From a virus (taxonomy: Duplodnaviria; Heunggongvirae; Uroviricota; Caudoviricetes): DNA of 64,000 bases. Within the stretch, counting starts at the first letter, position 1. Each line of letters begins with the position of its first letter. The position numbers were made by a program, and so were the translations under genes. The DNA is taken from positions 240,437 to 304,436 of the IMG/VR virus record IMGVR_UViG_3300031414_000001; one strand, 5' to 3'. The notes below the pieces were generated by a model. That model made no database searches and was not told where the DNA came from. It saw nothing but the letters and a program-made list of their open reading frames with translations. Positions 23,944 through 43,502 of the stretch are shown one piece after another.

Positions 23944-24126
23944 GTTTACTTCCTCGTGTTGGTTTATGTGTTAAGTATACTCCACCAGCAGAAGAACGCA
24001 AGTACTTTTTACGATTTAATTTATAATATTTTTTGGACGGATCTTGCCACCCTATAGGGTTTGTGCGTTTCGCCGCATTGATAGTACTATAACAAAAGGG
24101 CTAACCGAAGTCAACCCCTTTTTGAA

Positions 24127-24737: not shown

Positions 24738-24766
24738 AGAATAGCAAAGGGGCTGAACTATGTCAA
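24738..24766 (-). promoter_or_regulatory. early sigma70 promoter in terminator hairpin (TTGACA-N17-TATTCT)
   Basis: Reverse complement reads GGGGTTGACAtagttcaGCCCCtttgcTATTCTatcagtactgaaac. The 8-bp stem GGGGUUGA/UCAGCCCC contains the -35. Confidence 0.6.
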
Positions 24767-24781
24767 CCCCTAATTTGTACT

Positions 24782-25940: not shown

Positions 25941-26115
25941 TTTGTTTTGCCTCTGTGCTGTTTCAATAACTTCATTATACGTTATCCTGGTTTGAATGCA
26001 AGTACTATTCACGTTTTAATTTATAAATTTTTTACTGGACAGATATACAGTACTAATAGATTTTGAATACAGTACGCCACCCTATAGGGTTAGTCAGTTT
26101 CGCCTGATTGATAAC

Positions 26116-26144
26116 AGTATAGCAAGAAGGGCTGAACGGGTCAA
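26116..26144 (-). promoter_or_regulatory. early sigma70 promoter in terminator hairpin (TTGACC-N17-TATACT)
   Basis: Reverse complement reads GGGTTGACCcgttcagcccttcttgcTATACTgttatcaatcaggcgaaa. Confidence 0.55.
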
Positions 26145-26519
26145 CCCTTTCTATTAAAATATTTGCATTTCTTTTGCTACTGCCTGGCTGTAATAATAAA
26201 GAGCATACCAGGGCTTGACAAACGTTGTGGTGCAGTTATTAATATCTGCGTGGTTAAGTGTTAGTACTCCGTGTTTAGAATACAATCTAACTTTGCCGTT
26301 TCTGAATGATTTAAGTTCACGCATGATTAGAATACCAGGAAAAAGGAAAGTACTGTAACAATTGCGAGGATCACAATTTGTTCCATATGTTTAGCTTCAA
26401 TGTGTGCTAAACTTTCTTCTGTATACTCTACAACATATTTTTCTTTCATGTTTGCTTCCTCTGTTTCAGTACTGATAGGATAGCAAAAGGGCTTAACCTA
26501 AGTCAAGCCCTATTTTGAA

Positions 26520-27098: not shown

Positions 27099-27343
27099 TT
27101 TGATATTCTCGCTTAAATGATTAAGGCCATTCCCTAATCCATGTAAAAGATTATACAGTACTGAACGAATAACGCAAGTACTATTCACGTTTTAATTTAT
27201 AAATTTTTACCTGTACAGATATACAGTACTTTCTAGTACTAAAATCCATTGGACGCAACTTGCCACCCTATAGGGTTAGTCCATTTCGCTGGATTGAATA
27301 CAGTATAGCAAAAAGGGCTAACCGAAGTCAACCCTTTATTTTC

Positions 27344-28357: not shown

Positions 28358-28590
28358 TTTTAGATTCTCGCTTAATTAAAGGTTTTGATTTTTTTGAGAC
28401 TGTTTGCTGTCTCGATGTGTATATATTATCAAATACAAAACATAACGCAAGTGCTTTTTGATATTATTTTTAAATTCTTTTTATTTTTAAAGTACTGACG
28501 GAACTACCCACCCTATAGGGTTAGTCAGTTTCGCCTGATTGATAACAGTATAGCAAAAGGGGCTAACATATGTCAACCCCTGGAATGAAA

Positions 28591-28941: not shown

Positions 28942-29012
28942 TTCGTTGTACCTTGTTTGTTTTCAGTACTGATAGAATAACAAAGGGCTTAACCAAAGTC
29001 AAGCCCTAATTT

Positions 29013-32633: not shown

Positions 32634-32855
32634 TTAAAAGTACTCCCTCGTTTCGATACAATAATAGTACTACACACCGAGCCATCACGCAAGGAATTTA
32701 TTCAAAAACTTTTCCTTGACAACGCCGCTCTGTTCCCCTATAATTACTACATAGACGCGAGAAAGCGGAAACCCCAGGGGGTGGCAAAATGTATCTATAG
32801 GTTAGAAAGCTGTATATAAAAACAGTACTGGATATTTCACCAGTACTTTATGTTT

Positions 32856-33155
32856 TTAGCTGAAAATGTAACGTGATCCGCCGAAGTAATCAACGTTGAC
32901 CATAACAGCTTTATCTGTTACAATCGTGTGTTGCGTAGTCCAGCCAATCAGGTTAGTACCATCGAATAAGGCCATATGACCATAACCATATTCGACCAGT
33001 GCTGTAAAGTCGCCTTTTTCTTCAACGACACGCCAGGCATAGGGGGAACCGTCTTTCAGCCACAACGCACAATCTGAATAATCAGGACTGAGCTTATGCT
33101 CTTTGTCAGAAAGTACTTTTGCGACTTCTGCCATCAGTACTGCTAACTTATCCAT
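32856..33155 (-). CDS. hypothetical protein (99 aa; start at MDKLAVLM, GAGAGGATAGACAA RBS)
   Basis: The track ORF's MLIECEYFIM prefix duplicates the 31050-31100 leader sequence. Confidence 0.45.
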   Translation of the reverse strand: MDKLAVLMAEVAKVLSDKEHKLSPDYSDCALWLKDGSPYAWRVVEEKGDFTALVEYGYGHMALFDGTNLIGWTTQHTIVTDKAVMVNVDYFGGSRYIFS

Positions 33156-33233
33156 TTGTCTATCCTCTCGCTTAATGTGTAACTTCATTATAAAGTACTC
33201 GCATTCAATAAGCAAGTACTTTTGATAATGATT

Positions 33234-33422
33234 TTACGCCGTGCGGATCACTGTGATATTAGTATCAATATCAATTGATGTTCCCACTTCCAGATCGATG
33301 ATAGCACACAATTCATCGTTGGTCAAATCTGGTACAGTACTGATAACATCCAGGAGATTTAACCGATGATCAGTGTTATCATCGTTGCCGATAGTGTATT
33401 CACGTTTGACCATCTGGATCAT
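33234..33422 (-). CDS. hypothetical small protein (62 aa)
   Basis: Intact ORF. Confidence 0.35.
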   Translation of the reverse strand: MIQMVKREYTIGNDDNTDHRLNLLDVISTVPDLTNDELCAIIDLEVGTSIDIDTNITVIRTA

Positions 33423-33628
33423 GCCGGAACCTCTTGCGTCGATTCTTCCCAGGAAGATTTAACCATCGGCGTTTGCCCGCTTTTTTTCCAACGGGCAATC
33501 TCTTGCTCCGCGTCGTGGCGTGTATCATGTGCTGATACATACGTACCGCAAAAACGAATTACGAATTGCTTTTTCGGTGCACCAGTAAACTCACCTGCTA
33601 CGTTGTAACGACGATCTTTTTGAGCCAT
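33419..33628 (-). CDS. hypothetical small protein (69 aa)
   Basis: Intact ORF with 4-nt overlap. Confidence 0.4.
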   Translation of the reverse strand: MAQKDRRYNVAGEFTGAPKKQFVIRFCGTYVSAHDTRHDAEQEIARWKKSGQTPMVKSSWEESTQEVPA

Positions 33629-33715
33629 GATAACTTCCTCTTAATTAATGGTTATTGCGTTTCAGTAAGTTCATTATATAGTACTCGCAGAAGAAAGCAA
33701 GTACTATTAATGGAT

Positions 33716-33952
33716 TTACAAAGAAATAACTTTGTGATACTCGCCATGCGTCAAATCAGACACATATACTTCATTGCTGTTATTCAGCTTTTCAGTACTG
33801 GTGATCACGTTGCCGTGATACGTTTCATTCGCCCAGGTTTGGATCTGCTGGCTGACTTCTTCCAGATTGTCAGATCCTGCCAGTACTAACAGTTTATCAG
33901 ATCCAGCAATCGCCGTGCCAGTACTGCTTACAATGACTTCGAATTGTGGCAT
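33716..33952 (-). CDS. hypothetical small protein (78 aa)
   Basis: Intact ORF. Confidence 0.4.
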   Translation of the reverse strand: MPQFEVIVSSTGTAIAGSDKLLVLAGSDNLEEVSQQIQTWANETYHGNVITSTEKLNNSNEVYVSDLTHGEYHKVISL

Positions 33953-34224
33953 GATATATCCTCTTAATTAAATTCAACAGACAACATTATAACAATAAAG
34001 ATAAACAAAAGAAACTCTACTTTACGACTCATTTCTTTACCCTCGTTTGCCCTTCCATGTAATACATATTACCAGATTCAAAAACAAAAGCAAGTACTTT
34101 TTATGATTTAATTTATAACTTTTTTTGAACGGATCTTGCCACCCTATAGGGTTAGTCAGTTTCGCCTGATTGATAACAGTATAGCAAAAAGGGATTGAAC
34201 TTGTCAACCCCTAATTTTAGTACT

Positions 34225-34530
34225 TTACAAATCACGCACCGCTGTAGTATGCGTAATGTATGGGGCAGAACCGCCGATCAATTCTACCTTTGCCATCAGG
34301 GATATATGATCCCCTGCTGTTGGTAATGCTAACGCTTCCTGTACTGTGATCACTTCACCGAAAGAGTACTGATATTGTACAAAGGCTAACCAGGTATTAA
34401 AGATCTCGCCCGGTTTCCATCCGTGCTGTACTAAGCACACATTATCAATTACAATCGGTTTACCTGTATGATCTCTCGTAGTACAGGTATAAGTAAATGC
34501 TTTCGCGAAGTTATCAATGTTATCAGACAT
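34225..34530 (-). CDS. hypothetical protein (101 aa)
   Basis: Intact ORF downstream of a conserved leader module. Confidence 0.45.
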   Translation of the reverse strand: MSDNIDNFAKAFTYTCTTRDHTGKPIVIDNVCLVQHGWKPGEIFNTWLAFVQYQYSFGEVITVQEALALPTAGDHISLMAKVELIGGSAPYITHTTAVRDL

Positions 34531-34771
34531 TTTCTAATGTTACCTTAAGAGATTGTGTCATACGATTTCGCATTGCTTTTAGTACCATGCGACACGCTAA
34601 CACTTTGCCTTTATCATCCAGACGTTTAAAGCCTGGCCGTTTCATTGTATGGGATTGTAATTGAGTCCAGTTATCGACCCTTTGCCCCTTGCGATAGATT
34701 ATACAATGAATCTTGTCAGAAGTACAAGTAAAAATTACAACTAATCTTTTAGTACTATAGAATAGATCCAT
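34523..34771 (-). CDS. hypothetical protein (82 aa)
   Basis: Intact ORF. Confidence 0.4.
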   Translation of the reverse strand: MDLFYSTKRLVVIFTCTSDKIHCIIYRKGQRVDNWTQLQSHTMKRPGFKRLDDKGKVLACRMVLKAMRNRMTQSLKVTLENV

Positions 34772-34819
34772 AAAGCCCCTACAACACGTTTTAAGAGGGG
34801 GTATATTGCCCCCTATAGG

Positions 34820-35197
34820 TTACACGTCTACAGTATCATAAACATTACCTGATGCGATCCAGACGCTGAATTTTGGCATCTTATCCCATTCAGCCATAGT
34901 CAGACCGAGATCGTGGAGAACGTTAGTATTTGCCATACCTGGTACATTGTGAGCAGTACTGTACAACTTTCCATTGTACTGATACGCTAAACACATTTTA
35001 TGCTGATTGACAACGCACAACATAGAAGTAATCAGGGTAGTACAGGCGAAACGTTCCCGTACTAATGACAATTCAGTACTGATGCGTTTATTCAATCTGT
35101 CAACTTCTTTATTACATTCAGCTTTTGTTTTCCCCATCATTTCGATATGGGAAAGTGCACCTACAATGTCAGCCTGGATTGTGAAGATCTTATTCAT
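34820..35197 (-). CDS. hypothetical protein (125 aa; start at MNKIFTIQ, AAAGGAGTAAACC RBS)
   Basis: The internal Met has an excellent SD. Confidence 0.45.
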   Translation of the reverse strand: MNKIFTIQADIVGALSHIEMMGKTKAECNKEVDRLNKRISTELSLVRERFACTTLITSMLCVVNQHKMCLAYQYNGKLYSTAHNVPGMANTNVLHDLGLTMAEWDKMPKFSVWIASGNVYDTVDV

Positions 35198-35388
35198 GGG
35201 TTTACTCCTTTCGTTTAGTGTGAATACATAGTAAGTCATTACAGCAGTTAAAGCAAGTACTATTTGAGTTTTAATTTATAATATTTTCTGGATAGATCTC
35301 GCCACCCTATAGGGTTAGTCCATTTCTCTGGAGTGATTACATAGTACTATAAAAGGGATTGAATAGTCAACCCCTCTTTTGTAAAGAT

Positions 35389-35571
35389 TTAAACTTCTTT
35401 CCAGCGTCCATTATAGAACGTATGCGTTTCAATATACATGTTGTTAATGTTGCTGATATATCCTACACTATCAGCAGCCCGCCGTGTAGCAGCATTCTTT
35501 GCCCCACGTTCGGACTTTGCCTGGATAGGGTAAGCCTTACTACCGATCCCGATTGCGTATTGTTTAGCCAT
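35389..35571 (-). CDS. hypothetical small protein (60 aa)
   Basis: Intact ORF. Confidence 0.35.
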   Translation of the reverse strand: MAKQYAIGIGSKAYPIQAKSERGAKNAATRRAADSVGYISNINNMYIETHTFYNGRWKEV

Positions 35572-35749
35572 GCTTCACCGCCTTGATTGCGTTAACCGCA
35601 ATAATTCCTTTACATTCGCGAGGCAAACGGCATTCACATAACCAACGGGAAATACCGCCAACATAACGAGCCGTAGGGCATTTGTTCGCGTTCTCCTGAG
35701 TGAACAAAGGCCATTCAACATTACCCCAGGTAGGTCTAACAGTTTTCAT
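35564..35749 (-). CDS. hypothetical small Cys-rich protein (61 aa)
   Basis: Intact ORF; CxxxxxxxxxC..CxC pattern. Confidence 0.35.
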   Translation of the reverse strand: MKTVRPTWGNVEWPLFTQENANKCPTARYVGGISRWLCECRLPRECKGIIAVNAIKAVKHG

Positions 35750-35826
35750 TTTTAAAACCTCGTTTGCTTAAGTGATAACTCATTGTAAAGTACTTGCCAG
35801 GATTAAGCAAGTACTTTCGAAATGAA

Positions 35827-36213
35827 TTATAGATCTTTTTTGCGTTTTACGTCTGCCAGGTTTTCAGATACTGGAATATCATGTTCACGACAAAAACGGG
35901 ATAACGTGCCACAATCAGGAACTGGATAAGTACAGGCAGCATCGAACAACGCCAGGGCAGTTTGATCGAAACAACGCTCATAGCCATATTGGAATGTATC
36001 TTGTGCCAGGTCGATCCACACTGTACCATCTTCTAACGGGCGATTGTACACGTTCGCTACAAGCTCGTTAGCACGTTCTACAGGCACCAGGACGCTAACA
36101 TATACAGAATGATATGTGTTACCATCACCACGGTTAAACCAGCGTTTCGCGGTCATAGTGACGGCGTGAACATCGGCCAGGTTAACAGTACTGAAAATAG
36201 TTCTATTGGTCAT
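35827..36213 (-). CDS. hypothetical protein (128 aa)
   Basis: Intact ORF. Confidence 0.45.
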   Translation of the reverse strand: MTNRTIFSTVNLADVHAVTMTAKRWFNRGDGNTYHSVYVSVLVPVERANELVANVYNRPLEDGTVWIDLAQDTFQYGYERCFDQTALALFDAACTYPVPDCGTLSRFCREHDIPVSENLADVKRKKDL

Positions 36214-36220
36214 AATAATC

Positions 36221-36391
36221 TCACTTAATGTTATTGGCTGCTACAAAGTCAGGGTGTTTAGATTCAAACCACTGCATGACTTCTATTCTATCAGTACCTA
36301 CACCGAAGTGCAAGAACTCTTTTTCGATTTCATCATCATTGTTAACGGGAACCAATGAGAACAATTCCCACAACTTCAATAACTCCGCCAT
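36221..36391 (-). CDS. hypothetical small protein (56 aa, below ORF-track cutoff)
   Basis: Reverse complement reads GGAGTAAACAGC-ATG MAELLKLWELFSLVPVNNDDEIEKEFLHFGVGTDRIEVMQWFESKHPDFVAANNIK. Confidence 0.4.
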   Translation of the reverse strand: MAELLKLWELFSLVPVNNDDEIEKEFLHFGVGTDRIEVMQWFESKHPDFVAANNIK

Positions 36392-36486
36392 GCTGTTTAC
36401 TCCTGAGTGATTACCCTATACCGCTTATTATACAGATTACTCATTTACGATCAAGTACTATCTCGTTTTAATTTACTTTATTTTAA

Positions 36487-36512
36487 AACAAAAAATGCCC
36501 CTCGATCTAGGG
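36487..36512. terminator. bidirectional-looking hairpin terminator (GCCCCUcgaucuAGGGGC)
   Basis: 6-bp GC stem flanked by an A-run upstream and an AT-run downstream. Confidence 0.45.
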
Positions 36513-37072
36513 GCATTAATTGGTGAATAAGGTTTCCTTTCAGAACGTCTATAATGGCACTAATGCGATTATAGAACTTCACACCTACGCGGCAATTTAA
36601 TATAAGTAGTTTGTTTATAAAATTGAGTACCGGATAATCTTTCAGTACTAACCACAATCACCCTGTAGATGTGCTTTCGCTTTGTGGTTCCTGGTATAGA
36701 CTTACCTTGTGTGCTATACGTCTTAGGGTTCTACGTACTGCCACCAGGATATCAGCCTGATGGTTCAAATCTTAACTCCTTTGGCGGCTCGCCGTGTCGT
36801 TTCGATGTAGCTATATTATCATAACCAGCGAACCGATCAAGCGATTTAATTACTTTTTTTCGATTCTTTTTCCTTGCTTTTCTTTTTCAGTACTGGCATA
36901 ATATCTACATACCAGCGAAATGGGAGACTCTAGAGAGTGGCAAGTTGCGTCTAAAATTTATATAAAAAGCAATGGACGGATCTTGCCACCCTTTTGGGTT
37001 AGACCATTTCGCTGGATTGATAGTACTTTAACATAAGGGGCTAACCGAAGTCAACCCCTGTTTTGTAAAGAT

Positions 37073-37414
37073 TTACATTGCTTCGATGACTAATTTTAAT
37101 TCATATGAACTAAAATGTTTCTTGAATAATTGTTCAGCCTGGGCTTTACTTTCGGCGTCAATTATGATTGAGTCTTCACCGCGATCCGTGCCGTAGGTTA
37201 TCGCGAACCCACGACGCACGATTTCTTTTGTTGGCAGGTGAATAGTACCGTTACGCAACAATTGCCCTTCTGGATCATTTGCGATTGCCTGGAGATCTAC
37301 TTCAACGTAAAGTTCATCGTTGAACAATTCCACAATCGGATCAATGTTCCCTCTTTTGTGTGCGATTTGTTCCAGTTGGAAAAGTACGCCTTTCAGTTCG
37401 CTTAATCTCATCAT
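37073..37414 (-). CDS. hypothetical protein (113 aa)
   Basis: Intact ORF. Confidence 0.45.
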   Translation of the reverse strand: MMRLSELKGVLFQLEQIAHKRGNIDPIVELFNDELYVEVDLQAIANDPEGQLLRNGTIHLPTKEIVRRGFAITYGTDRGEDSIIIDAESKAQAEQLFKKHFSSYELKLVIEAM

Positions 37415-37493
37415 TTTCGTTTTGCTCCGTTGGTTGGTGTGATTACATAGTACTATAAAGGGCTTGAAACAGTCAAGCCCTAAATTGTAAAGA

Positions 37494-38156
37494 TTATAAC
37501 TTTTCTAACGCTTCCTGAATCCGTTCCTGTAAGTTAGTCGTGACAATGTTTTCCAGTGTCAGATCGTCCGGGTAGTTAATATCTGAGTTTTCCAGTACTT
37601 CCCCCAGGGTTGGATCTTCCTGTACAATCAAGGCCGCCAGGTTAGGCCAAATTTGATTATACTCAAAATCCAGAACATCCCAGACGGCTTCCTGTACTGA
37701 ATCACGCCATTTCATTTCTGATAACGCAAGGTTATAGTAATGTTCATACATGGTAACAGTGATCGGCGTTTCCATCTTCTGGCGGTAGTACTGAATCAGA
37801 CGATCCACCAGCTTGATCCGGTTCGCACCGTGGATCGTGTCGTCGTCGTACAAGTTACGCTGAGCAGTGTACGCAATACGCATATGATCGCGATTGTCGT
37901 TACTCATACCCTCCACCGGATAGGCATTATCTAAGCCCATTTCTTCAAAGGCATCACACAAAAATTCCCAACCGATCCCTGTTATGTTGTGGTCCGGCGT
38001 TTTGGCGTATACATGCCAGCAAATGCCGAAAGAAGTAGTAAGGTTAAACGGCTTACCTTTAACATTAGTGTAAGTCTCGCCACGGTCTAAACAATCTTTC
38101 ATTTGTTCCAGTACTTCCAGAACCATTCTATATTGCTCTAACTTAAATAAGTTCAT
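37494..38156 (-). CDS. hypothetical protein (220 aa)
   Basis: Long intact ORF. Confidence 0.5.
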   Translation of the reverse strand: MNLFKLEQYRMVLEVLEQMKDCLDRGETYTNVKGKPFNLTTSFGICWHVYAKTPDHNITGIGWEFLCDAFEEMGLDNAYPVEGMSNDNRDHMRIAYTAQRNLYDDDTIHGANRIKLVDRLIQYYRQKMETPITVTMYEHYYNLALSEMKWRDSVQEAVWDVLDFEYNQIWPNLAALIVQEDPTLGEVLENSDINYPDDLTLENIVTTNLQERIQEALEKL

Positions 38157-38296
38157 TTTGTTTTCCTCTCGTTTCGATAAGTTCTATTATCCATATTCGA
38201 ACGAACTATGCAAGTACTAATTTACTTTTTTGATGCAAAAATAAAACCCCTTCTAAAACGCTCTGTAACGAGTTCTAAGGGGTTTTATATGTTAGC

Positions 38297-38566
38297 TTAT
38301 GCCTTTAATGATTCTGCGTTAAAAGCCCCGCTAATGGGCTTACATTGAAGATTTACGGCATAGTTTACTTTCTTGTGGATGATATACATACACGAATCAA
38401 ATTGATGATTGTAAGGCATATCATAGATCCGACGCTGTACCAGTACGCCACCAACTACAAAGGCAAGATAGCCGCTAAACTCCGCTGTATATCGCCCCGT
38501 CTGCGTCATTGTCTTTGCGATCCTGGTACGTGGATCAATCAGGTCTGAAATAGGTTTCAATTCCAT
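38297..38566 (-). CDS. hypothetical protein (89 aa)
   Basis: Intact ORF. Confidence 0.4.
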   Translation of the reverse strand: MELKPISDLIDPRTRIAKTMTQTGRYTAEFSGYLAFVVGGVLVQRRIYDMPYNHQFDSCMYIIHKKVNYAVNLQCKPISGAFNAESLKA

Positions 38567-38711
38567 AGGCGTTTACTCTCAATTAAAAGGTAGTCTAAAA
38601 CGCTCTAGGATCGATTCTAAGCGTTTCTAACAGTACTGTAACCCGATTGTATATCAGTACTGTTAGAACTGCTTAAGGGGGCATTTAGCCCCCTTATTTT
38701 ACGCCGTGGGA

Positions 38712-39410
38712 TTACTCGCCAGCGTTTTCGGTTTCAGCTTCGCTTTCGGCTTCGACTTTATACGCTTTGATAAAGTCGTCACGGTCAAGGCCGCTTTCAG
38801 ACAGAATCGCTTTGAGTTCGTTACCCATGTTACCTTTTACCGGCATATCGTACTGTTTGCCGTTGTATTCAACCGTTACACGGTCGTAGCTGTTTTTCGG
38901 CTCTGCGGCGGCTTTCAGTTTCGCTTTCGCACCAGCTTCGACGGCGGCTTTAGCCATTGTCAGATCCATGCCTGAATCGAGCAGCAGTTTCAGCATCGCT
39001 TTCTTTTCTTCTTCCATCGCGGCGTTGGCGGCGGCGGCTTCGGCTTCACGCTGAGCTTTCAGGGCGTTGCGGTTCGCTTCGCGGTCTGCTTTGCGTTTAG
39101 CGATGTTTTCCGCTTCACGTTCCAGGACAGCAGGGATCAGCGTTACAGTCGCAGACAGCAGGCGGGAAATGATTTCCACGTTGTCGGACTTGTCAACCAG
39201 GTAATCAGCCAGGGCAGCCGCCTGAGTGTTTACGAACGCCGTTACATCGCCTTCGAATTGTGCCAGTACTTCAGGGCTGTGCGACTCGCCTTCTTTCAGG
39301 GTAGCCAGTACCGGAGCAGACGCCAGCACAATGCTGTTCAGGGTTACTTTAGGAGCTTTAACAGCAGTTTCAACGGTAGCAGCAACAACAGTTTTGTTAG
39401 ACTTAGACAT
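38712..39410 (-). CDS. Ala/Glu/Lys-rich protein encoded on a GC-rich island (232 aa)
   Basis: Long ORF whose local GC is visibly higher (about 55%) than surrounding DNA. Low-complexity A/E/K repeats (AKAAVEAGAKAKLKAAAEPK). Confidence 0.55.
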   Translation of the reverse strand: MSKSNKTVVAATVETAVKAPKVTLNSIVLASAPVLATLKEGESHSPEVLAQFEGDVTAFVNTQAAALADYLVDKSDNVEIISRLLSATVTLIPAVLEREAENIAKRKADREANRNALKAQREAEAAAANAAMEEEKKAMLKLLLDSGMDLTMAKAAVEAGAKAKLKAAAEPKNSYDRVTVEYNGKQYDMPVKGNMGNELKAILSESGLDRDDFIKAYKVEAESEAETENAGE

Positions 39411-40379
39411 AATATGTACCTTCTTAAAAGTGATTGATTAATTTGTTTGTCTGATTCGCTCTTGCGTTTCAGTGATTACATCTTACTACGTTTCGTTTCT
39501 TTCGGTCAAGGACTTTTTCAACTTTCTAGAAACTTTTTTTCGTTTCATCTCCAGGCGGTAGATAGGACGCTAACAGTTAGTTAGCCTTTATAACGCTACG
39601 TTGCCTTTGTCGGTCATACGCTGTAACAGTACTATCTATTCTAGCCCTGTTACCGTTTCCTATCATCCGGCGAACCTTACCGCCTTTCGATGATTGACAT
39701 TCTACACTACTCAATCTAGCAGTCAAGTACTTTCTCAAATCTTTTTCGCGTTTCCGCTTAAGTCATTGTTTCAGTACTGAATGCCAGGTTTTTAAAGAGC
39801 GGTGTTTCGTGTCGTTGGAGCTATACTATCATACAGAACGAACCATGCAAGGACTTTTTCACTTTTTCATTAAAATAGTTTCGTTCCTCGCTTTCCTTCA
39901 TTATATGCACTTCCTGGTTCCTGTATCGAGTTCTAAGCCCTTTAACAGTACTAACATACACATTCACCAGGGATCGAACTACAAACGCTTAAACGGCTTT
40001 ATATTACGTATAAGGAAGGGCTAAAAAGTTTTGTAAAGATTGTAGAAAGTACTGGACAGCAGATCCCGAATAAGGCATAATAACTACATAGACGCGAGAA
40101 AGCGGAGACCCCAGGGGGTGGCAAGTTGCGTCCAAAATTCGTATAAAAAACTACAGACGGATCTTGCCACCCTCTAGGGTCGCCCATTTCGCTGGTGTGT
40201 GGATATAGTACTATAATCCGGCCAGGTCTGTCAAATTTATTTTTATTGAAAAAAGTACTTGCATTCGTCGCTCAGTATGATAATATAGCTCTGTCAACAC
40301 GAAAAGACAGCTTTCGATTCTGCCTGGTACTAACCAGACGCGGAAGGGGAGCTAATGGAAAAATGACAGAAAAAAACCA

Positions 40380-40520
40380 TTTAGCCGTCTAAACGTCTAG
40401 CCATCTAGACGGATAGCCATCTAGCCTTTTAGCCGTCCAGAAGGATAGCAGTCTATACGTCTATACATCCAGCTATCTACACTTCCAGAAGTCTATCCAT
40501 CTTCTGACAGCAGACGGGAT
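40380..40520. repeat. iteron-like array of about 10 direct/inverted copies of AGCC(A/G)TCTA / GTCTA(T/G)
   Basis: ttagccgtctaaacgtctagccatctagacggatagccatctagccttttagccgtccagaaggatagcagtctatacgtctatacatccagctatctacac... Confidence 0.6.
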
Positions 40521-40730
40521 TGATCCGTCTATCGAATACCAATACAGTACTGTAATTGTATCTGTATCTTGGACTCTCTCAATTAAAATTTAACAGTACT
40601 GACACTATACTCTCTAGGGTAATATCTACCGTACAAAAATATAATGCCAGTACTGTCGAAGTGCATCAAGTGCTACTCAAATACGCTTAGTACTCAATTT
40701 CCTAAGCAACGCAAGAAAGGAGGAAAAACT

Positions 40731-40802
40731 ATGAACACGAGGGTTCAAGTCACCAGGCAGTCTACACCAACCAGGCTAGGCTTCAGTACTGGCAGCTATT
40801 AA
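40731..40802 (+). CDS. 23-codon mini-ORF with perfect RBS (MNTRVQVTRQSTPTRLGFSTGSY)
   Basis: AAAGGAGG 7 nt upstream of ATG, inside an otherwise ORF-free 2-kb region. Confidence 0.35.
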   Translation: MNTRVQVTRQSTPTRLGFSTGSY

Positions 40803-41426
40803 CCACCTCCTGAACCATGTGTGTATATTACCGTACCACCAGCCAGAACGCAAGGACTTTCTTCAACTATTTTCATAATACTCTAGTACTGTAAATGTAT
40901 CCAGTACTGTACATATACACATGGGTGCTGGTGGTTCGAACTTTAGTTACAACATCTTATTCTATATTCTTTCGAAGATAGTCTAGTACAGAAATGATTT
41001 CGAGTACTATTGAGATTTAGGCTGGAGGTTCAAAGGTACTTCAAAATTTCTAGGATCGAGATTTAGGATAGAGTACTTTCCAGATTTTAGCTGAAGTGAG
41101 TTCTGGTTTTTTCAGTACTGAGATTTCCGTTCGACTTCAGGAACAGATATAGCGGAAGGGGGTTGACCAGTACTGGCAAGGGATGTTACAGTACTGGAGT
41201 GTACACTGTATGTATCTTCAGTACTGATAACTTATACATAATGTAGATTTTTACAGTACTGTATATTAATACATGGAATATCGCGAACGCTATTTTAGCT
41301 AGTTTGAATCCTTTCGATATCGCAATAGCGATACTACAGGAATCAAACACATGGCGTATAGAGCGTTCTAGGAGGTTCTAAGGGGTGTTTGAGATAGGTT
41401 TGTAGTACTGTTCTATATAGGTAAAG

Positions 41427-41438
41427 TGGGTAAATACT
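41427..41438 (+). promoter_or_regulatory. GGGTAAATAC motif (candidate late-type promoter) 33 nt upstream of first tagged gene
   Basis: gtGGGTAAATACtg. The same motif precedes genes at 47061, 48313, 59446 and (as GGTAAATTA) the SPFH gene. Confidence 0.4.
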
Positions 41439-41471
41439 GATAAGAATTTTTATTATAAGGAGATAAAAGGT

Positions 41472-43502
41472 ATGTTACCCTTTCCAATATTAAACTACTA
41501 TGGGAATAACATTGTACCTCCAGTAAAGACAATAGAAAGATTTTCAATATCCTCCAATGGTTCAGGAGTACTGTTACATTATGCTAATGGTGATTTATAT
41601 GCTTTAGGAACTAACACTGCTGGTAAGTTTGGTACAGGTGATACTACGAACATAACTGGTGCTTGGAGACTCATAGCTAGTAATGTACGTAAGTATGTAT
41701 GTTCTCATAACTTCACTATAATCATACACAATGATGGTTCAGTTCAGTACTCAGGCAATGTGAGTAATATTTTCACGTCAGCATTAGGATATTCATTTAG
41801 TACTACGAATGTGTTTACTGACATGAGTTCGGCGTTTAGTTCCTTTGATGTTCTAGGCATTAAGTCCTTAGAGTCTATGGAAGATTCAGGATATAGATTT
41901 TGGCTAATTGATAAGAATGATGTGTTATGGTGTATTGGTTCTAATCAGTACTACGCATTAGGTAGTTCTTCTAGTCTTACTACAACGAATTGGGTACAGG
42001 CAGTTAATGGTACTAATGTCGAAAGAGTTATGCCTGGATTACAATCAGTATGGATTAAGAAGAAAGATAATACGTACTGGAGAGCGGGAACTAATGCTTA
42101 TGGTTTATTAATGAGTAGTTCAGCTTCACAGACATATACGACATTTACTGTACAGAATTCATATGCCGGTACAGCGGCGAATAACACTATACGGAATCTA
42201 ACAGTAACTCCATACAACATGTATATGAATTTAGAAGACGGTTCAGTACGTATCTATGGTGTAAGAAACTCTGGTCAGACAGGTACAGGAAGCACAACTG
42301 GTACGGCATTGATTCCAGATAATCCATCGGGAACAAGTGGAGTTCTGAAGTTACTGGATAGTACTGGTTCGTTTTACAGTTCTTATTTGGTTGGGCCGAA
42401 TGGATTATTGGTAGCAGGTCAAGGTACTAATAACATGTTTGGTTTAGGTACGGGGGCATCTCCTACAACCTTTACGTTATCTAACACAGGTGTAATGACT
42501 AATTTAGATTATGCTAATTTAGATTACTTGAACTTCGTTACATCTAATGCTGGGTATGCTGTAATTGGTGGGGAAGTATATACTGCTGGTAATAGTGCTT
42601 ATACATTAGGTGCTACGTCATATATTACGTGGACATTGATGAATACACCACAGAGTCAGTTATGGGGAACATCAGGAATGGTTAGTACTATAACTAATGC
42701 TTCGACTACTTCTCCGACAATGACTAGATATTCTCACAGCAGATGTAGTTATGGAGATGATAAGTTCATTATCTATGGTGGATATAATGGTTCGACGATT
42801 TTTAATGATATTAACATTTACGATGGTACTACAGGAACGTGGAGTACTGTACCAGTGACGGGAACTACGAAGGCATTATTTGGTGCAGGTATTACTACTA
42901 TTGGTGATACGATGTATGTCTTTTGTGGTAACAGTACTACCTCGACTACGACGAACACGATTTATTCAGTTAATTTACTTACTGGAGATTGGACTACGAT
43001 TACGCCGAGTGGAAGTACTATAAGTGCTAGATCGCATGTACGGGCGTGTACTATAGGAACTATGATATACATATGGGGTGGTGAGAGTGTTAACACATGG
43101 TTCTCATTTAATCCGGTTACGAATGTAGTAGCTTCTATGCCTACATCGCCAGTAACATCTAGTATTGATGCGGATATGGTTACTGATGGTAAGGATATAT
43201 TTGTTAACATTGGTACTACGGCGTTTTACAAGTACAGTACTAGTAAAGCTGCTTGGATAGTACTAGCTAATAAGAATAATGCGGCATTGAAGCTCGCATA
43301 TAGTAATGGATATATCTATGGTTCTATGGCGGGGAATACATTCTTGTTCGCATATAAGGTCAGTACTAACATATGGACGCAATTACCTAATCCTTCATTG
43401 ATTAGTACTAGTCGTCATTGTTTAGCATCAGCGGCGGGTAAGGTTGTGTATACGGGTGGTATAGCTAGTACTAACAGCAATAACTGTTTTACAATAACAT
43501 AA
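41472..43502 (+). CDS. MLPFPxL-tagged RCC1-like + Kelch-like beta-propeller protein (676 aa)
   Basis: N-terminal tag MLPFPILNYYGN. RCC1-type GxNxxGxLGxG blades (GTNTAGKFGTGDTTN, GSNQYYALGSSSS). C-terminal Kelch-like blades (RYSHSRCSYGDDKFIIYGG, RSHVRACTIGTMIYIWGG). Confidence 0.75.
   Translation: MLPFPILNYYGNNIVPPVKTIERFSISSNGSGVLLHYANGDLYALGTNTAGKFGTGDTTNITGAWRLIASNVRKYVCSHNFTIIIHNDGSVQYSGNVSNIFTSALGYSFSTTNVFTDMSSAFSSFDVLGIKSLESMEDSGYRFWLIDKNDVLWCIGSNQYYALGSSSSLTTTNWVQAVNGTNVERVMPGLQSVWIKKKDNTYWRAGTNAYGLLMSSSASQTYTTFTVQNSYAGTAANNTIRNLTVTPYNMYMNLEDGSVRIYGVRNSGQTGTGSTTGTALIPDNPSGTSGVLKLLDSTGSFYSSYLVGPNGLLVAGQGTNNMFGLGTGASPTTFTLSNTGVMTNLDYANLDYLNFVTSNAGYAVIGGEVYTAGNSAYTLGATSYITWTLMNTPQSQLWGTSGMVSTITNASTTSPTMTRYSHSRCSYGDDKFIIYGGYNGSTIFNDINIYDGTTGTWSTVPVTGTTKALFGAGITTIGDTMYVFCGNSTTSTTTNTIYSVNLLTGDWTTITPSGSTISARSHVRACTIGTMIYIWGGESVNTWFSFNPVTNVVASMPTSPVTSSIDADMVTDGKDIFVNIGTTAFYKYSTSKAAWIVLANKNNAALKLAYSNGYIYGSMAGNTFLFAYKVSTNIWTQLPNPSLISTSRHCLASAAGKVVYTGGIASTNSNNCFTIT

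Follow-up and report, generated by a model that had tools for sequence, protein, structure and literature searches.

Putative face-to-face early promoters sharing a leader RNA motif in a Rak2-like jumbo phage

Two palindromic composites in an early gene region

We analyzed a 64,000-nucleotide stretch of viral DNA (hereafter the window), which corresponds to positions 240,437 to 304,436 of IMG/VR record IMGVR_UViG_3300031414_000001, and we concentrated on two palindromic elements at 36896-37031 and 40077-40211 that we call composites. Its sequence assigns the window to a Rak2-like (Mimasvirus-type) jumbo phage, with 89% identity to Xanthomonas phage XbC2 (Mimasvirus) and Erwinia phage Kaldavass and weaker matches to CBB, GAP32, Serratia phage BF, the Erwinia pEa_SNUABM phages, Yersinia phage fHe-Yen9-04 and many Escherichia coli, Salmonella and Klebsiella phages. 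The early genes to the left of the 40.1-kb composite are small, densely packed and on the minus strand, and 7 of the 9 minus-strand open reading frames (ORFs) tested match PHROG families. A noncoding region of 2 kb (39411-41471) separates these genes from plus-strand RCC1-like genes, which run from 41472 onward. An earlier interpretation of the locus, to which we refer as the sequence-only reading, proposed that the palindromic elements flank an ORF-poor region. This proposal does not fit the gene content: the interval from 32.7 to 40.2 kb is packed with genes, and the truly ORF-poor region lies at ~39.4-41.5 kb. Small minus-strand genes fill the stretch from 30 to 39.4 kb, whose orthologous locus in XbC2 has 23 annotated coding sequences; the XbC2 stretch orthologous to 32.7-40.2 kb has 16.

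The 40.1-kb composite contains a perfect 9-bp inverted repeat, GGTGGCAAG (40117-40125) and CTTGCCACC (40163-40171), with 37 bp between its half-sites, which are 46 bp apart from center to center. The sequence and repeat that the sequence-only reading had quoted are thus present, and the two leader cores in inverted orientation that it described are found in both composites. The AT-rich stretch makes up the central 22 bp of the 40.1-kb composite, and the symmetry reaches 55-nt arms with a complementarity of 71%. The 36.9-kb composite also has a perfect 9-bp inverted repeat, and the two composites are in direct orientation relative to each other. A near-identical copy had been reported at 36.9 kb; the copy is real, but near-identity is an overstatement, as the two share 82% identity over 83 nt. 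The left half was also said to occur alone at two places. It does recur at 32740-32787, with 96% identity over 48 nt, as part of a solo copy (32740-32801), but the other proposed instance, 40085-40130, is the left arm of the 40.1-kb composite itself. The composites and the solo copy are all far above chance, and a 17-nt core has 7 occurrences with at most 3 mismatches, versus 0.04 expected.

Every arm of a composite corresponds to a single copy of a ~55-nt motif, which begins a few bases past a sigma70-consensus promoter and spans ~+4 to +55 after it. We are highly confident in the anatomy that this implies, i.e., two face-to-face modules, each made of a host-type early promoter and a leader. 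Start sites are predicted near 40086(+), 40201(-), 36906(+), 37021(-) and 32751(+), those of facing promoters being ~116 bp apart. The further copies that the sequence-only reading had called for exist: a covariance model of the motif, R1, finds 11 in the window (8 minus, 3 plus) with E-values from 1e-13 to 1e-20 (Table 1). Single copies outnumber paired ones.

Table 1. Positions in the window of promoters, leader motifs and terminators
Feature	Position	Strand	Remarks
Plus promoter, 40.1-kb composite	40053..40081	+	TGGACA-17-CATAAT; consensus scan, 10/12 matches
Leader motif, plus arm, type A ACTACATAGACGCGAGAAAGCGGAGACCCCAGGGGGTGGCAAGTTGCGTCC	40077..40138	+	cmsearch 69.6 bits
AT-rich central spacer between arms	40133..40155	.	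no invariant column across the 18 aligned composites
Leader motif, minus arm	40150..40211	-	cmsearch 73.6 bits
Minus early promoter, 40.1-kb composite	40205..40234	-	TTGACA-18-TACTAT; 10/12 matches
Plus promoter, 36.9-kb composite	36874..36902	+	TTGCTT-17-CATAAT; read from the sequence, aligned with 24 other plus-arm promoters
Leader motif, plus arm	36896..36957	+	cmsearch 66.5 bits; H2 is CTC-TAGA-GAG, a compensated variant
Leader motif, minus arm	36969..37031	-	cmsearch 68.9 bits
Minus promoter, 36.9-kb composite	37054-37025 (cassette 37025..37058)	-	TTGACT-18-TAAAGT; -35 within GGGGTTGAC-TTCG-GTTAGCCCC terminator-type hairpin
Promoter of solo plus copy	32716..32744	+	TTGACA-17-TATAAT; perfect consensus, 12/12 matches
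Solo leader motif, type A	32740..32801	+	cmsearch 63.3 bits; antisense to gene block
Bidirectional intrinsic terminator	32824..32857	.	AGTACTGG-N8-CCAGTACT, T-runs on both strands; flagged on both strands
Solo leader	35285..35347	-	downstream of P1 promoter; followed by UP-like TATAAATTAAA and second promoter (AGTACTTGC...)
Solo leader	34122..34184	-	promoter 34207-34178, 11/12 matches
Solo leader	28491..28553	-	covariance-model match
Solo leader	27246..27308	-	covariance-model match
Solo leader	26060..26122	-	covariance-model match
Solo leader	24030..24092	-	covariance-model match
Terminator hairpins holding the next promoter's -35	24748-24771, 26488-26511, 28558-28581, 28984-29007, 34190-34212, 37037-37058	-	

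The promoters of these cassettes are near-consensus for sigma70, with 9 to 12 matches out of 12 (e.g., TTGACT-17-TATAGT), and the DNA upstream of them is AT-rich. The -35 hexamer of the upstream promoter sits inside a GGGGTTGAC-N4-GTTAGCCCC hairpin that is followed by T's and is the terminator of the preceding unit. Hairpins of the form AGGGGTTGAC-N4-GTTAGCCCCT with a T-run were called terminator-like at 24771, 26511, 28581, 29007 and 34212; a hairpin of this type is also found in the 36.9-kb minus-strand cassette, and is absent at the 40.2-kb promoter. After five of the six solo minus leaders (the one at 28491 diverges) come an AT-rich TATAAATTAAA tract, a second promoter and then the gene. 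This second promoter class, as a separate observation, consists of TATAAATTAAA, N7-9 and AGTACTTGCnTT-N16-TAnnnT, e.g., at 23960-24030, 34050-34122 and 35215-35285 on the minus strand. Its TTGCTT-type -35 presumably resembles the T4 MotA box, and we take TATAAAT to be reminiscent of T4 late promoters.

Evidence for a leader RNA motif

It is probable, in our view, that the ~55-nt motif acts at the RNA level. The motif comprises a hairpin H1 with the loop GNGAAA, a hairpin H2 (ACCC-N4-GGGU), a helix H3 (GGGUGG-N6-CCGUCC) and a conserved 3' tail. We studied these parts in 60 copies, which are the matches of R1 across eleven loci. H1 has a stem of 3-5 bp, and pairing holds in 98.8% of its alignment cells. 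Each of the three core pairs changes between CG, GC, AU and UA, with 68 double-sided changes in all, and neither the covariation score nor the percentage paired was reached by any of 500 shuffles; slid controls were 40-63% paired. H3, seen as GGGUG(G)/(C)CGUCC, is 96.8% paired, and ~94 changed cells keep pairing versus 9 that break it. The variation in H3 is all on the 3' side, where G-C becomes G-U and U-G becomes U-A. Since the G-U pairs correspond to A-C mismatches on the opposite strand, the constraint acts on the sense strand specifically. Two independent compensated variants of H2 were seen, CTC/GAG and CCU/AGG. H2 overlaps H3, so that the two are mutually exclusive, and it is the thermodynamically preferred fold. 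In the minus arm of the 40.1-kb composite, for example, H1 is CCA-GCGAAA-TGG, H2 is CCC-TAGA-GGG and H3 is GGGTGG-CAAGAT-CCGTCT, followed by T6.

Comparison with known RNAs gave no counterpart. Over the whole window, Rfam 15 has no match to the motif at gathering thresholds, and at permissive thresholds it gives only sub-threshold matches to microRNA precursors, which reflect a generic long hairpin. A search of the window for transfer RNAs and transfer-messenger RNAs found none. We dropped a preQ1-like hairpin with an A-tail, as it has no Rfam match, as well as resemblances to the type I-F CRISPR repeat and to the ops element of RfaH (GGCGGTAG), because the critical positions vary among copies and genera. 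The type-A leader has no counterpart in 5,426 E. coli genomes or in 185,579 species genomes, and host mimicry or a host origin is therefore unsupported. In IMG/VR, a strict type-A pattern matched only two large contigs of the same phage group; a scan with a loose pattern was set aside, as its matches are mostly due to chance.

Both the motif and its paired arrangement are conserved in related phages. Convergent plus/minus pairs are present at two syntenic sites in each of XbC2, Kaldavass, CBB, GAP32, BF, fHe-Yen9-04 and Munch, and at one site in fENko-Kae01. These eight relatives represent three named genera and two unplaced phages. In a ninth phage, vB_Ec-M-J, the pair at one site is degenerate in its minus arm. 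Arm starts in convergent pairs are offset by 72-91 nt, and the offset varies because of 18-nt spacer insertions. Such an insert is found in the aligned composites of BF, fHe-Yen9-04, Munch and fENko-Kae01, and is palindromic in the latter two. Across 18 aligned composites, the invariant columns are the motif's invariant positions, twice over. The plus promoters were compared in 25 plus-oriented copies from ten phage genomes and one metagenomic contig; the T and G of the -35 and the A..AT of the -10 show no or almost no variation, with 17±1 spacing and AT-rich DNA upstream. Orthologues of the solo plus copy are found in XbC2 and Kaldavass; in fHe-Yen9-04, there is another plus copy that is not paired.

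The 9-bp repeat itself is conserved differently. Its inner 3-4 bases, which are H3 loop positions, differ between arms in XbC2 (GGTGGGGAA/GGTGGCAAG) and BF (GGTGCGGAG/GGTGCCAAG), and are also unequal in Kaldavass, fHe-Yen9-04, Munch and others. The perfect repeat is therefore a lineage-specific feature and not the selected property. One compensated arm-to-arm change was observed, from GGCAAG/CTTGCC in the window to GGGAAG/CTTCCC in XbC2, with Kaldavass as a mismatched intermediate. We considered selection for arm-to-arm pairing and rejected it, since most orthologues carry 1-3 mismatches in the 9-bp repeat.

These observations bear on the suggestion, made in the sequence-only reading, that the full palindrome is the complete binding site of a dimeric DNA-binding protein. 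Under this hypothesis, a repressor or activator would read two GGTGGCAAG half-sites. The perfect repeat in both composites of the window agrees with such an operator, and the site overlaps transcribed DNA just past the promoters, where a roadblock repressor could act. However, the distance between half-sites and the range of arm offsets speak against this, the half-sites are often unequal in relatives, and single half-site copies predominate. Moreover, the H1 stems vary freely yet stay complementary, and H3 includes G-U pairs; neither is expected where a protein recognizes duplex DNA. We thus regard an operator as very improbable. The palindromic DNA symmetry, including the 9-bp repeat, arises because two copies of one RNA motif are arranged head to head, and the palindrome is a by-product of this placement and not a duplex recognition site.

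It might also seem that a composite is a bidirectional terminator or attenuator in the form of a long, GC-rich hairpin. Very stable hairpins are indeed predicted on both strands (see next section), and H3 of the minus arm together with its T-run was called terminator-like in both composites of the window, i.e., also in the arm at 40150..40211. However, the full hairpin has no U-run on either strand, the element lies downstream of promoters and not at the 3' ends of genes, and the true terminators of the region have a different, recognizable form. The H3 T-run is missing from the composites designated Kaldavass_b, CBB_b and GAP32_a and from those of Eneladusvirus phages; as the T-run is not conserved in relatives, we rejected an attenuator consisting of H3 and a T-run. 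In sum, termination is an improbable function of the composites.

Proposed convergent transcription and its alternatives

Our favored reading, to which we assign a probability of roughly 55%, is that facing early promoters with a shared leader RNA bring about mutual control. Both convergent promoters would fire and their transcription units would cross, with each RNA carrying its own leader and then the complement of the other leader. Because the units cross, each RNA could fold into a ~115-nt hairpin and the two RNAs would be fully complementary. The predicted ~115-nt hairpins on the two strands have energies of -55.9 and -52.9 kcal/mol and z-scores of -5.3 and -6.0, and the upper stem of the long hairpin is near-perfect, with at least 17 bp. 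The likely outcome would be mutual control of both directions of transcription, and it would operate twice: at 36.9 kb and, within the terminal repeat, at its first early unit (40.1 kb). It could come about through promoter interference or colliding polymerases, through pairing of countertranscripts, or through masking of the leader or its processing by RNase III.

Precedents for this geometry exist. Face-to-face promoter switches occur in coliphage 186 (pR/pL) and P2 (Pe/Pc), and countertranscripts in ColE1 (RNA I/RNA II) and P22 (sar/ant); these systems regulate by transcriptional interference or by antisense pairing of structured RNAs. As in these systems, the putative promoters here are convergent and roughly 60-110 bp apart, and the predicted transcripts overlap at their 5' ends. 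Unlike in these systems, both predicted RNAs open with the same sense motif, which makes the overlap palindromic and the RNAs self-complementary; moreover, the present case concerns a virulent jumbo phage with two sites, where interference is a prediction. Hairpins processed by RNase III are found in early leaders of other phages, e.g., T7 R0.3 and the lambda N leader. Here, too, a long imperfect hairpin would lie in the 5' leader of the first early unit, but it is made of two promoter-leader modules, and cleavage is only proposed. Given the geometry shared with face-to-face switches, countertranscripts and RNase III sites, we tentatively prefer interference, antisense pairing or RNase III processing as the mechanism, while recognizing that this part of the hypothesis may well be wrong.

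It is important to consider several points that weigh against mutual control. The promoters and start sites are consensus predictions only, and a convergent layout alone is not proof of regulation. Folded on their own, single leaders show no exceptional stability (z-scores from +0.1 to -2.5, the majority between 0 and -1), and the motif probably needs a protein or polymerase partner. Some P1 terminator/promoter cassettes have no leader, and the gene comes directly after them; cassettes can thus do without the leader and its second promoter, which form an optional insert. The plus RNA at 36.9 kb meets a weak terminator, namely the promoter hairpin read in reverse. For the 40.1-kb plus RNA, no terminator-like site that could end it is found on either strand in 40200-41500.

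At the solo plus copy, the bidirectional terminator would end the RNA at ~110 nt, and this RNA would be noncoding. The existence of a unit with promoter, motif and terminator that makes such an RNA suggests that the motif also works outside of mRNAs. A broader idea, which we consider rather unlikely, is that the leader represents a new class of phage RNA of the Rak2-like jumbo phages sampled here, working in cis or in trans, that recruits or sequesters a host or phage factor at some of the early promoters in the terminal repeat. Such an RNA might, for example, modify the polymerase or act as a decoy for a nuclease or defense protein, and the composites and the 32.7-kb unit would then be dedicated small-RNA genes that time the early program of the first-entering DNA.

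Early leaders that modify the polymerase are known from other phages. The nut sites of lambda (boxA/boxB) and the put sites of HK022 are short, structured early-leader RNAs that are read as transcription proceeds; boxB, the partner of the arginine-rich N protein, has a 5-bp stem and a GNRA-like pentaloop, and boxA has the consensus CGCTCTTA or TGCTCTTTAACAA. The leader could likewise be a nut/put-like RNA that modifies host RNA polymerase in cis at each early promoter of the terminal repeat, alone or together with a small phage protein, and so causes antitermination or promoter-proximal arrest for early shut-off. At the composites, polymerases moving in either direction would then be modified. 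This alternative competes with the mechanism proposed above and not with the anatomy. It fits the location of the motif at the extreme 5' end of transcripts from strong promoters, as well as the covariation of H1, which indicates a short RNA hairpin with a conserved, purine-rich loop; this GNGAAA loop resembles, we assume, the GNRA-like loops of boxB. Intrinsic terminators embedded in the next promoter punctuate the region, and the motif on its own is so weakly stable that a protein or polymerase partner is implied. However, no boxA-like element is visible in the aligned leaders, and the motif has a hexaloop on a stem of 3-5 bp and is present in 11 copies starting at ~+4, without sequence similarity to nut or put and without an Rfam match. 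A crude scan of minus-strand ORFs in 18-41 kb found no convincing arginine-rich, N-like protein. In addition, a good terminator lies ~50 nt after the solo plus copy, which would be pointless if the motif conferred resistance to terminators. Read-through has no obvious use, as almost all cassettes have promoters of their own, and the leader is absent from some P1 promoters. A nut/put-like role thus seems doubtful to us.

Another set of alternatives concerns DNA rearrangement. The sequence-only reading also raised the possibility that the palindrome is a transposition or recombination end, and that copies delimit a variable segment in related phages. Insertions, deletions or replacements relative to XbC2 and Kaldavass do adjoin promoter/terminator cassettes, at 32856/33232, 35233/35250, 36213/36427 and 37073/37398. 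A 119-aa ORF at 32857-33231 is absent from XbC2, a 56-aa ORF at 36214-36426 is absent from both XbC2 and Kaldavass, and XbC2 holds an additional gene of ~660 bp at 35233/35250. Thus, there are breakpoints at neighboring cassettes; however, only one adjoins a composite, where Kaldavass swaps the gene at 37073-37398 (a 113-aa ORF) and keeps the composite, which is itself conserved.

These four breakpoints, and the fact that the sequences are repeated and partly inverted, could be explained if the elements were ends of a mobile or recombining segment (resembling a transposon or a miniature inverted-repeat transposable element) or sites of site-specific recombination. Nevertheless, the elements are at the same syntenic positions in eight relatives, and the 36.9-kb and 40.1-kb elements are direct and not inverted relative to each other. 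No recombinase- or transposase-like gene is evident; three of the four ORFs between the composites belong to PHROGs of unknown function and the fourth has no match. We noticed no target-site duplication on reading the flanks, though no dedicated test was run. Mobility is, on this evidence, a highly unlikely explanation. The breakpoints fit passive homologous shuffling, and a better explanation for them is that repeated regulatory cassettes undergo homologous exchange, like the promoter-early stem-loops (PeSLs) of T4-type phages (PMC2839356).

The final alternative relates to the position of the 40.1-kb composite in the genome. In CBB, fENko-Kae01 and vB_Ec-M-J, whose records annotate a terminal repeat starting at position 1, the corresponding composite lies ~1.0-1.4 kb inside the left end of this repeat, which is 22,456 bp, 19,736 bp (PhageTerm) and 21,525 bp long, respectively. 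Base 1 of the XbC2 record equals window position 41150, and, judged by the position of the composite, ~41150 is also where the annotated direct terminal repeat starts in the other three phages. All 11 motif copies (24.0-40.2 kb) are less than 17.2 kb from 41150, and therefore lie within the expected terminal repeat. The window therefore crosses the presumed physical end of the genome, probably because of a collapsed or permuted assembly. The noncoding segment 39479-40521 is better conserved than the flanking genes, and is the sole segment of a 9-kb query that is still ~80% alignable with Serratia and Erwinia Eneladusvirus phages. The minimum of cumulative GC-skew, at ~40 kb, is inside the 2-kb noncoding region.

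An array with 8-bp periodicity was observed at 40377-40472 (extent ~40361-40496), ~170 bp to the right of the composite. It has the consensus CCATCTAG/ACGTCTAG and higher-order periods of 16 and 32 bp, and is also visible in XbC2 and BF. The array could be a set of iterons, or a packaging or terminus-related signal.

The 40.1-kb composite could accordingly be imagined as part of a replication origin or of a region for processing the terminus, with an RNA from the highly conserved plus promoter, directed toward the genome end, serving as primer or activator. Its location ~1 kb from the repeat end, the noncoding setting conserved across genera, the adjacent array and the coincidence with the GC-skew minimum and the strand switch are all in line with this idea. 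So is the fact that the plus arm is the best-conserved half, with ~93% identity over 44 nt to Salmonella and Klebsiella phages. However, the 36.9-kb composite and the 32.7-kb solo copy are inside the gene block and have no such context. Convergent transcription overwinds the DNA between promoters and does not unwind it, and the change in gene orientation explains the GC-skew switch equally well. A function in replication or terminus processing is, in our estimation, quite improbable.

Relation to described cassettes, and other features of the window

With respect to the favored reading of facing early promoters, the closest described elements are the PeSL cassettes of T4-type phages (Arbiol et al. 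2010, PMC2839356; Comeau et al. 2014, PMC4122927). Both are small, repeated regulatory cassettes among small genes of unknown function, with AT-rich DNA upstream of a strong sigma70-like early promoter and a GGGG...CCCC stem-loop terminator next to it, and in both, breakpoints of insertions, deletions or replacements between close relatives are located at cassettes. Recombination between cassettes that yields mini-circles is a further trait of the T4-type class. There are also differences: the stem-loop here encloses the -35 hexamer, about half of the cassettes add a ~55-nt structured leader and a second promoter, and two cassettes per genome are face to face. Neither the leader motif nor convergent pairing is mentioned in the PeSL papers PMC2839356 and PMC4122927. 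In the CBB genome paper, RpoD-like promoters are predicted for the early region and the terminal repeat (PMC5259590), again with no mention of a leader motif or of convergent pairs. Our literature searches found no description of the leader motif and no transcript-level study of the transcription program of Rak2-like phages. We conclude that the leader RNA motif is undescribed, and that the composite is a variation on PeSL-like cassettes and face-to-face promoters.

Rak2-like jumbo phages (~350 kb) are candidates for phage therapy and biocontrol, and the present analysis adds to their description a repeated early-promoter cassette in the terminal repeat and a leader RNA motif that is backed by covariation and absent from Rfam. 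It also adds two head-to-head copies whose positions are conserved in phages of three named genera and in two unplaced phages. These elements provide testable targets for understanding how such phages start and shut off early expression. In addition, the analysis corrects the view, however tempting, that the palindrome is a protein operator or the end of a mobile element.

Some features of the window are distinct from the leader motif. The palindromic hexamer AGTACT occurs 291 times in the window versus ~22 expected (13-fold), and the next palindromic hexamer is enriched 1.85-fold. Each 4-kb bin contains AGTACT; in coding DNA, the hexamer falls in all codon phases, and 114 of the 291 sites are inside long ORFs. 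Its commonest context is CAGTACTG, and it is embedded in many promoter elements. The hexamer is also enriched 15-24-fold in the XbC2, BF, Kaldavass and vB_Ec-M-J loci, and we found no account of this enrichment in the literature. Two CAGTACTG motifs form the basis of a hairpin at 38618-38675, between the genes for proteins of 232 and 89 aa, which has 21-bp arms with 90% complementarity and a 16-nt loop, and which follows a GGGGGC...GCCCCC hairpin. By contrast with AGTACT, the palindromic hexamers CAGCTG, AGGCCT, AGCGCT and ACGCGT have 0 occurrences in the window versus 6-9 expected for each, which may reflect avoidance of restriction sites.

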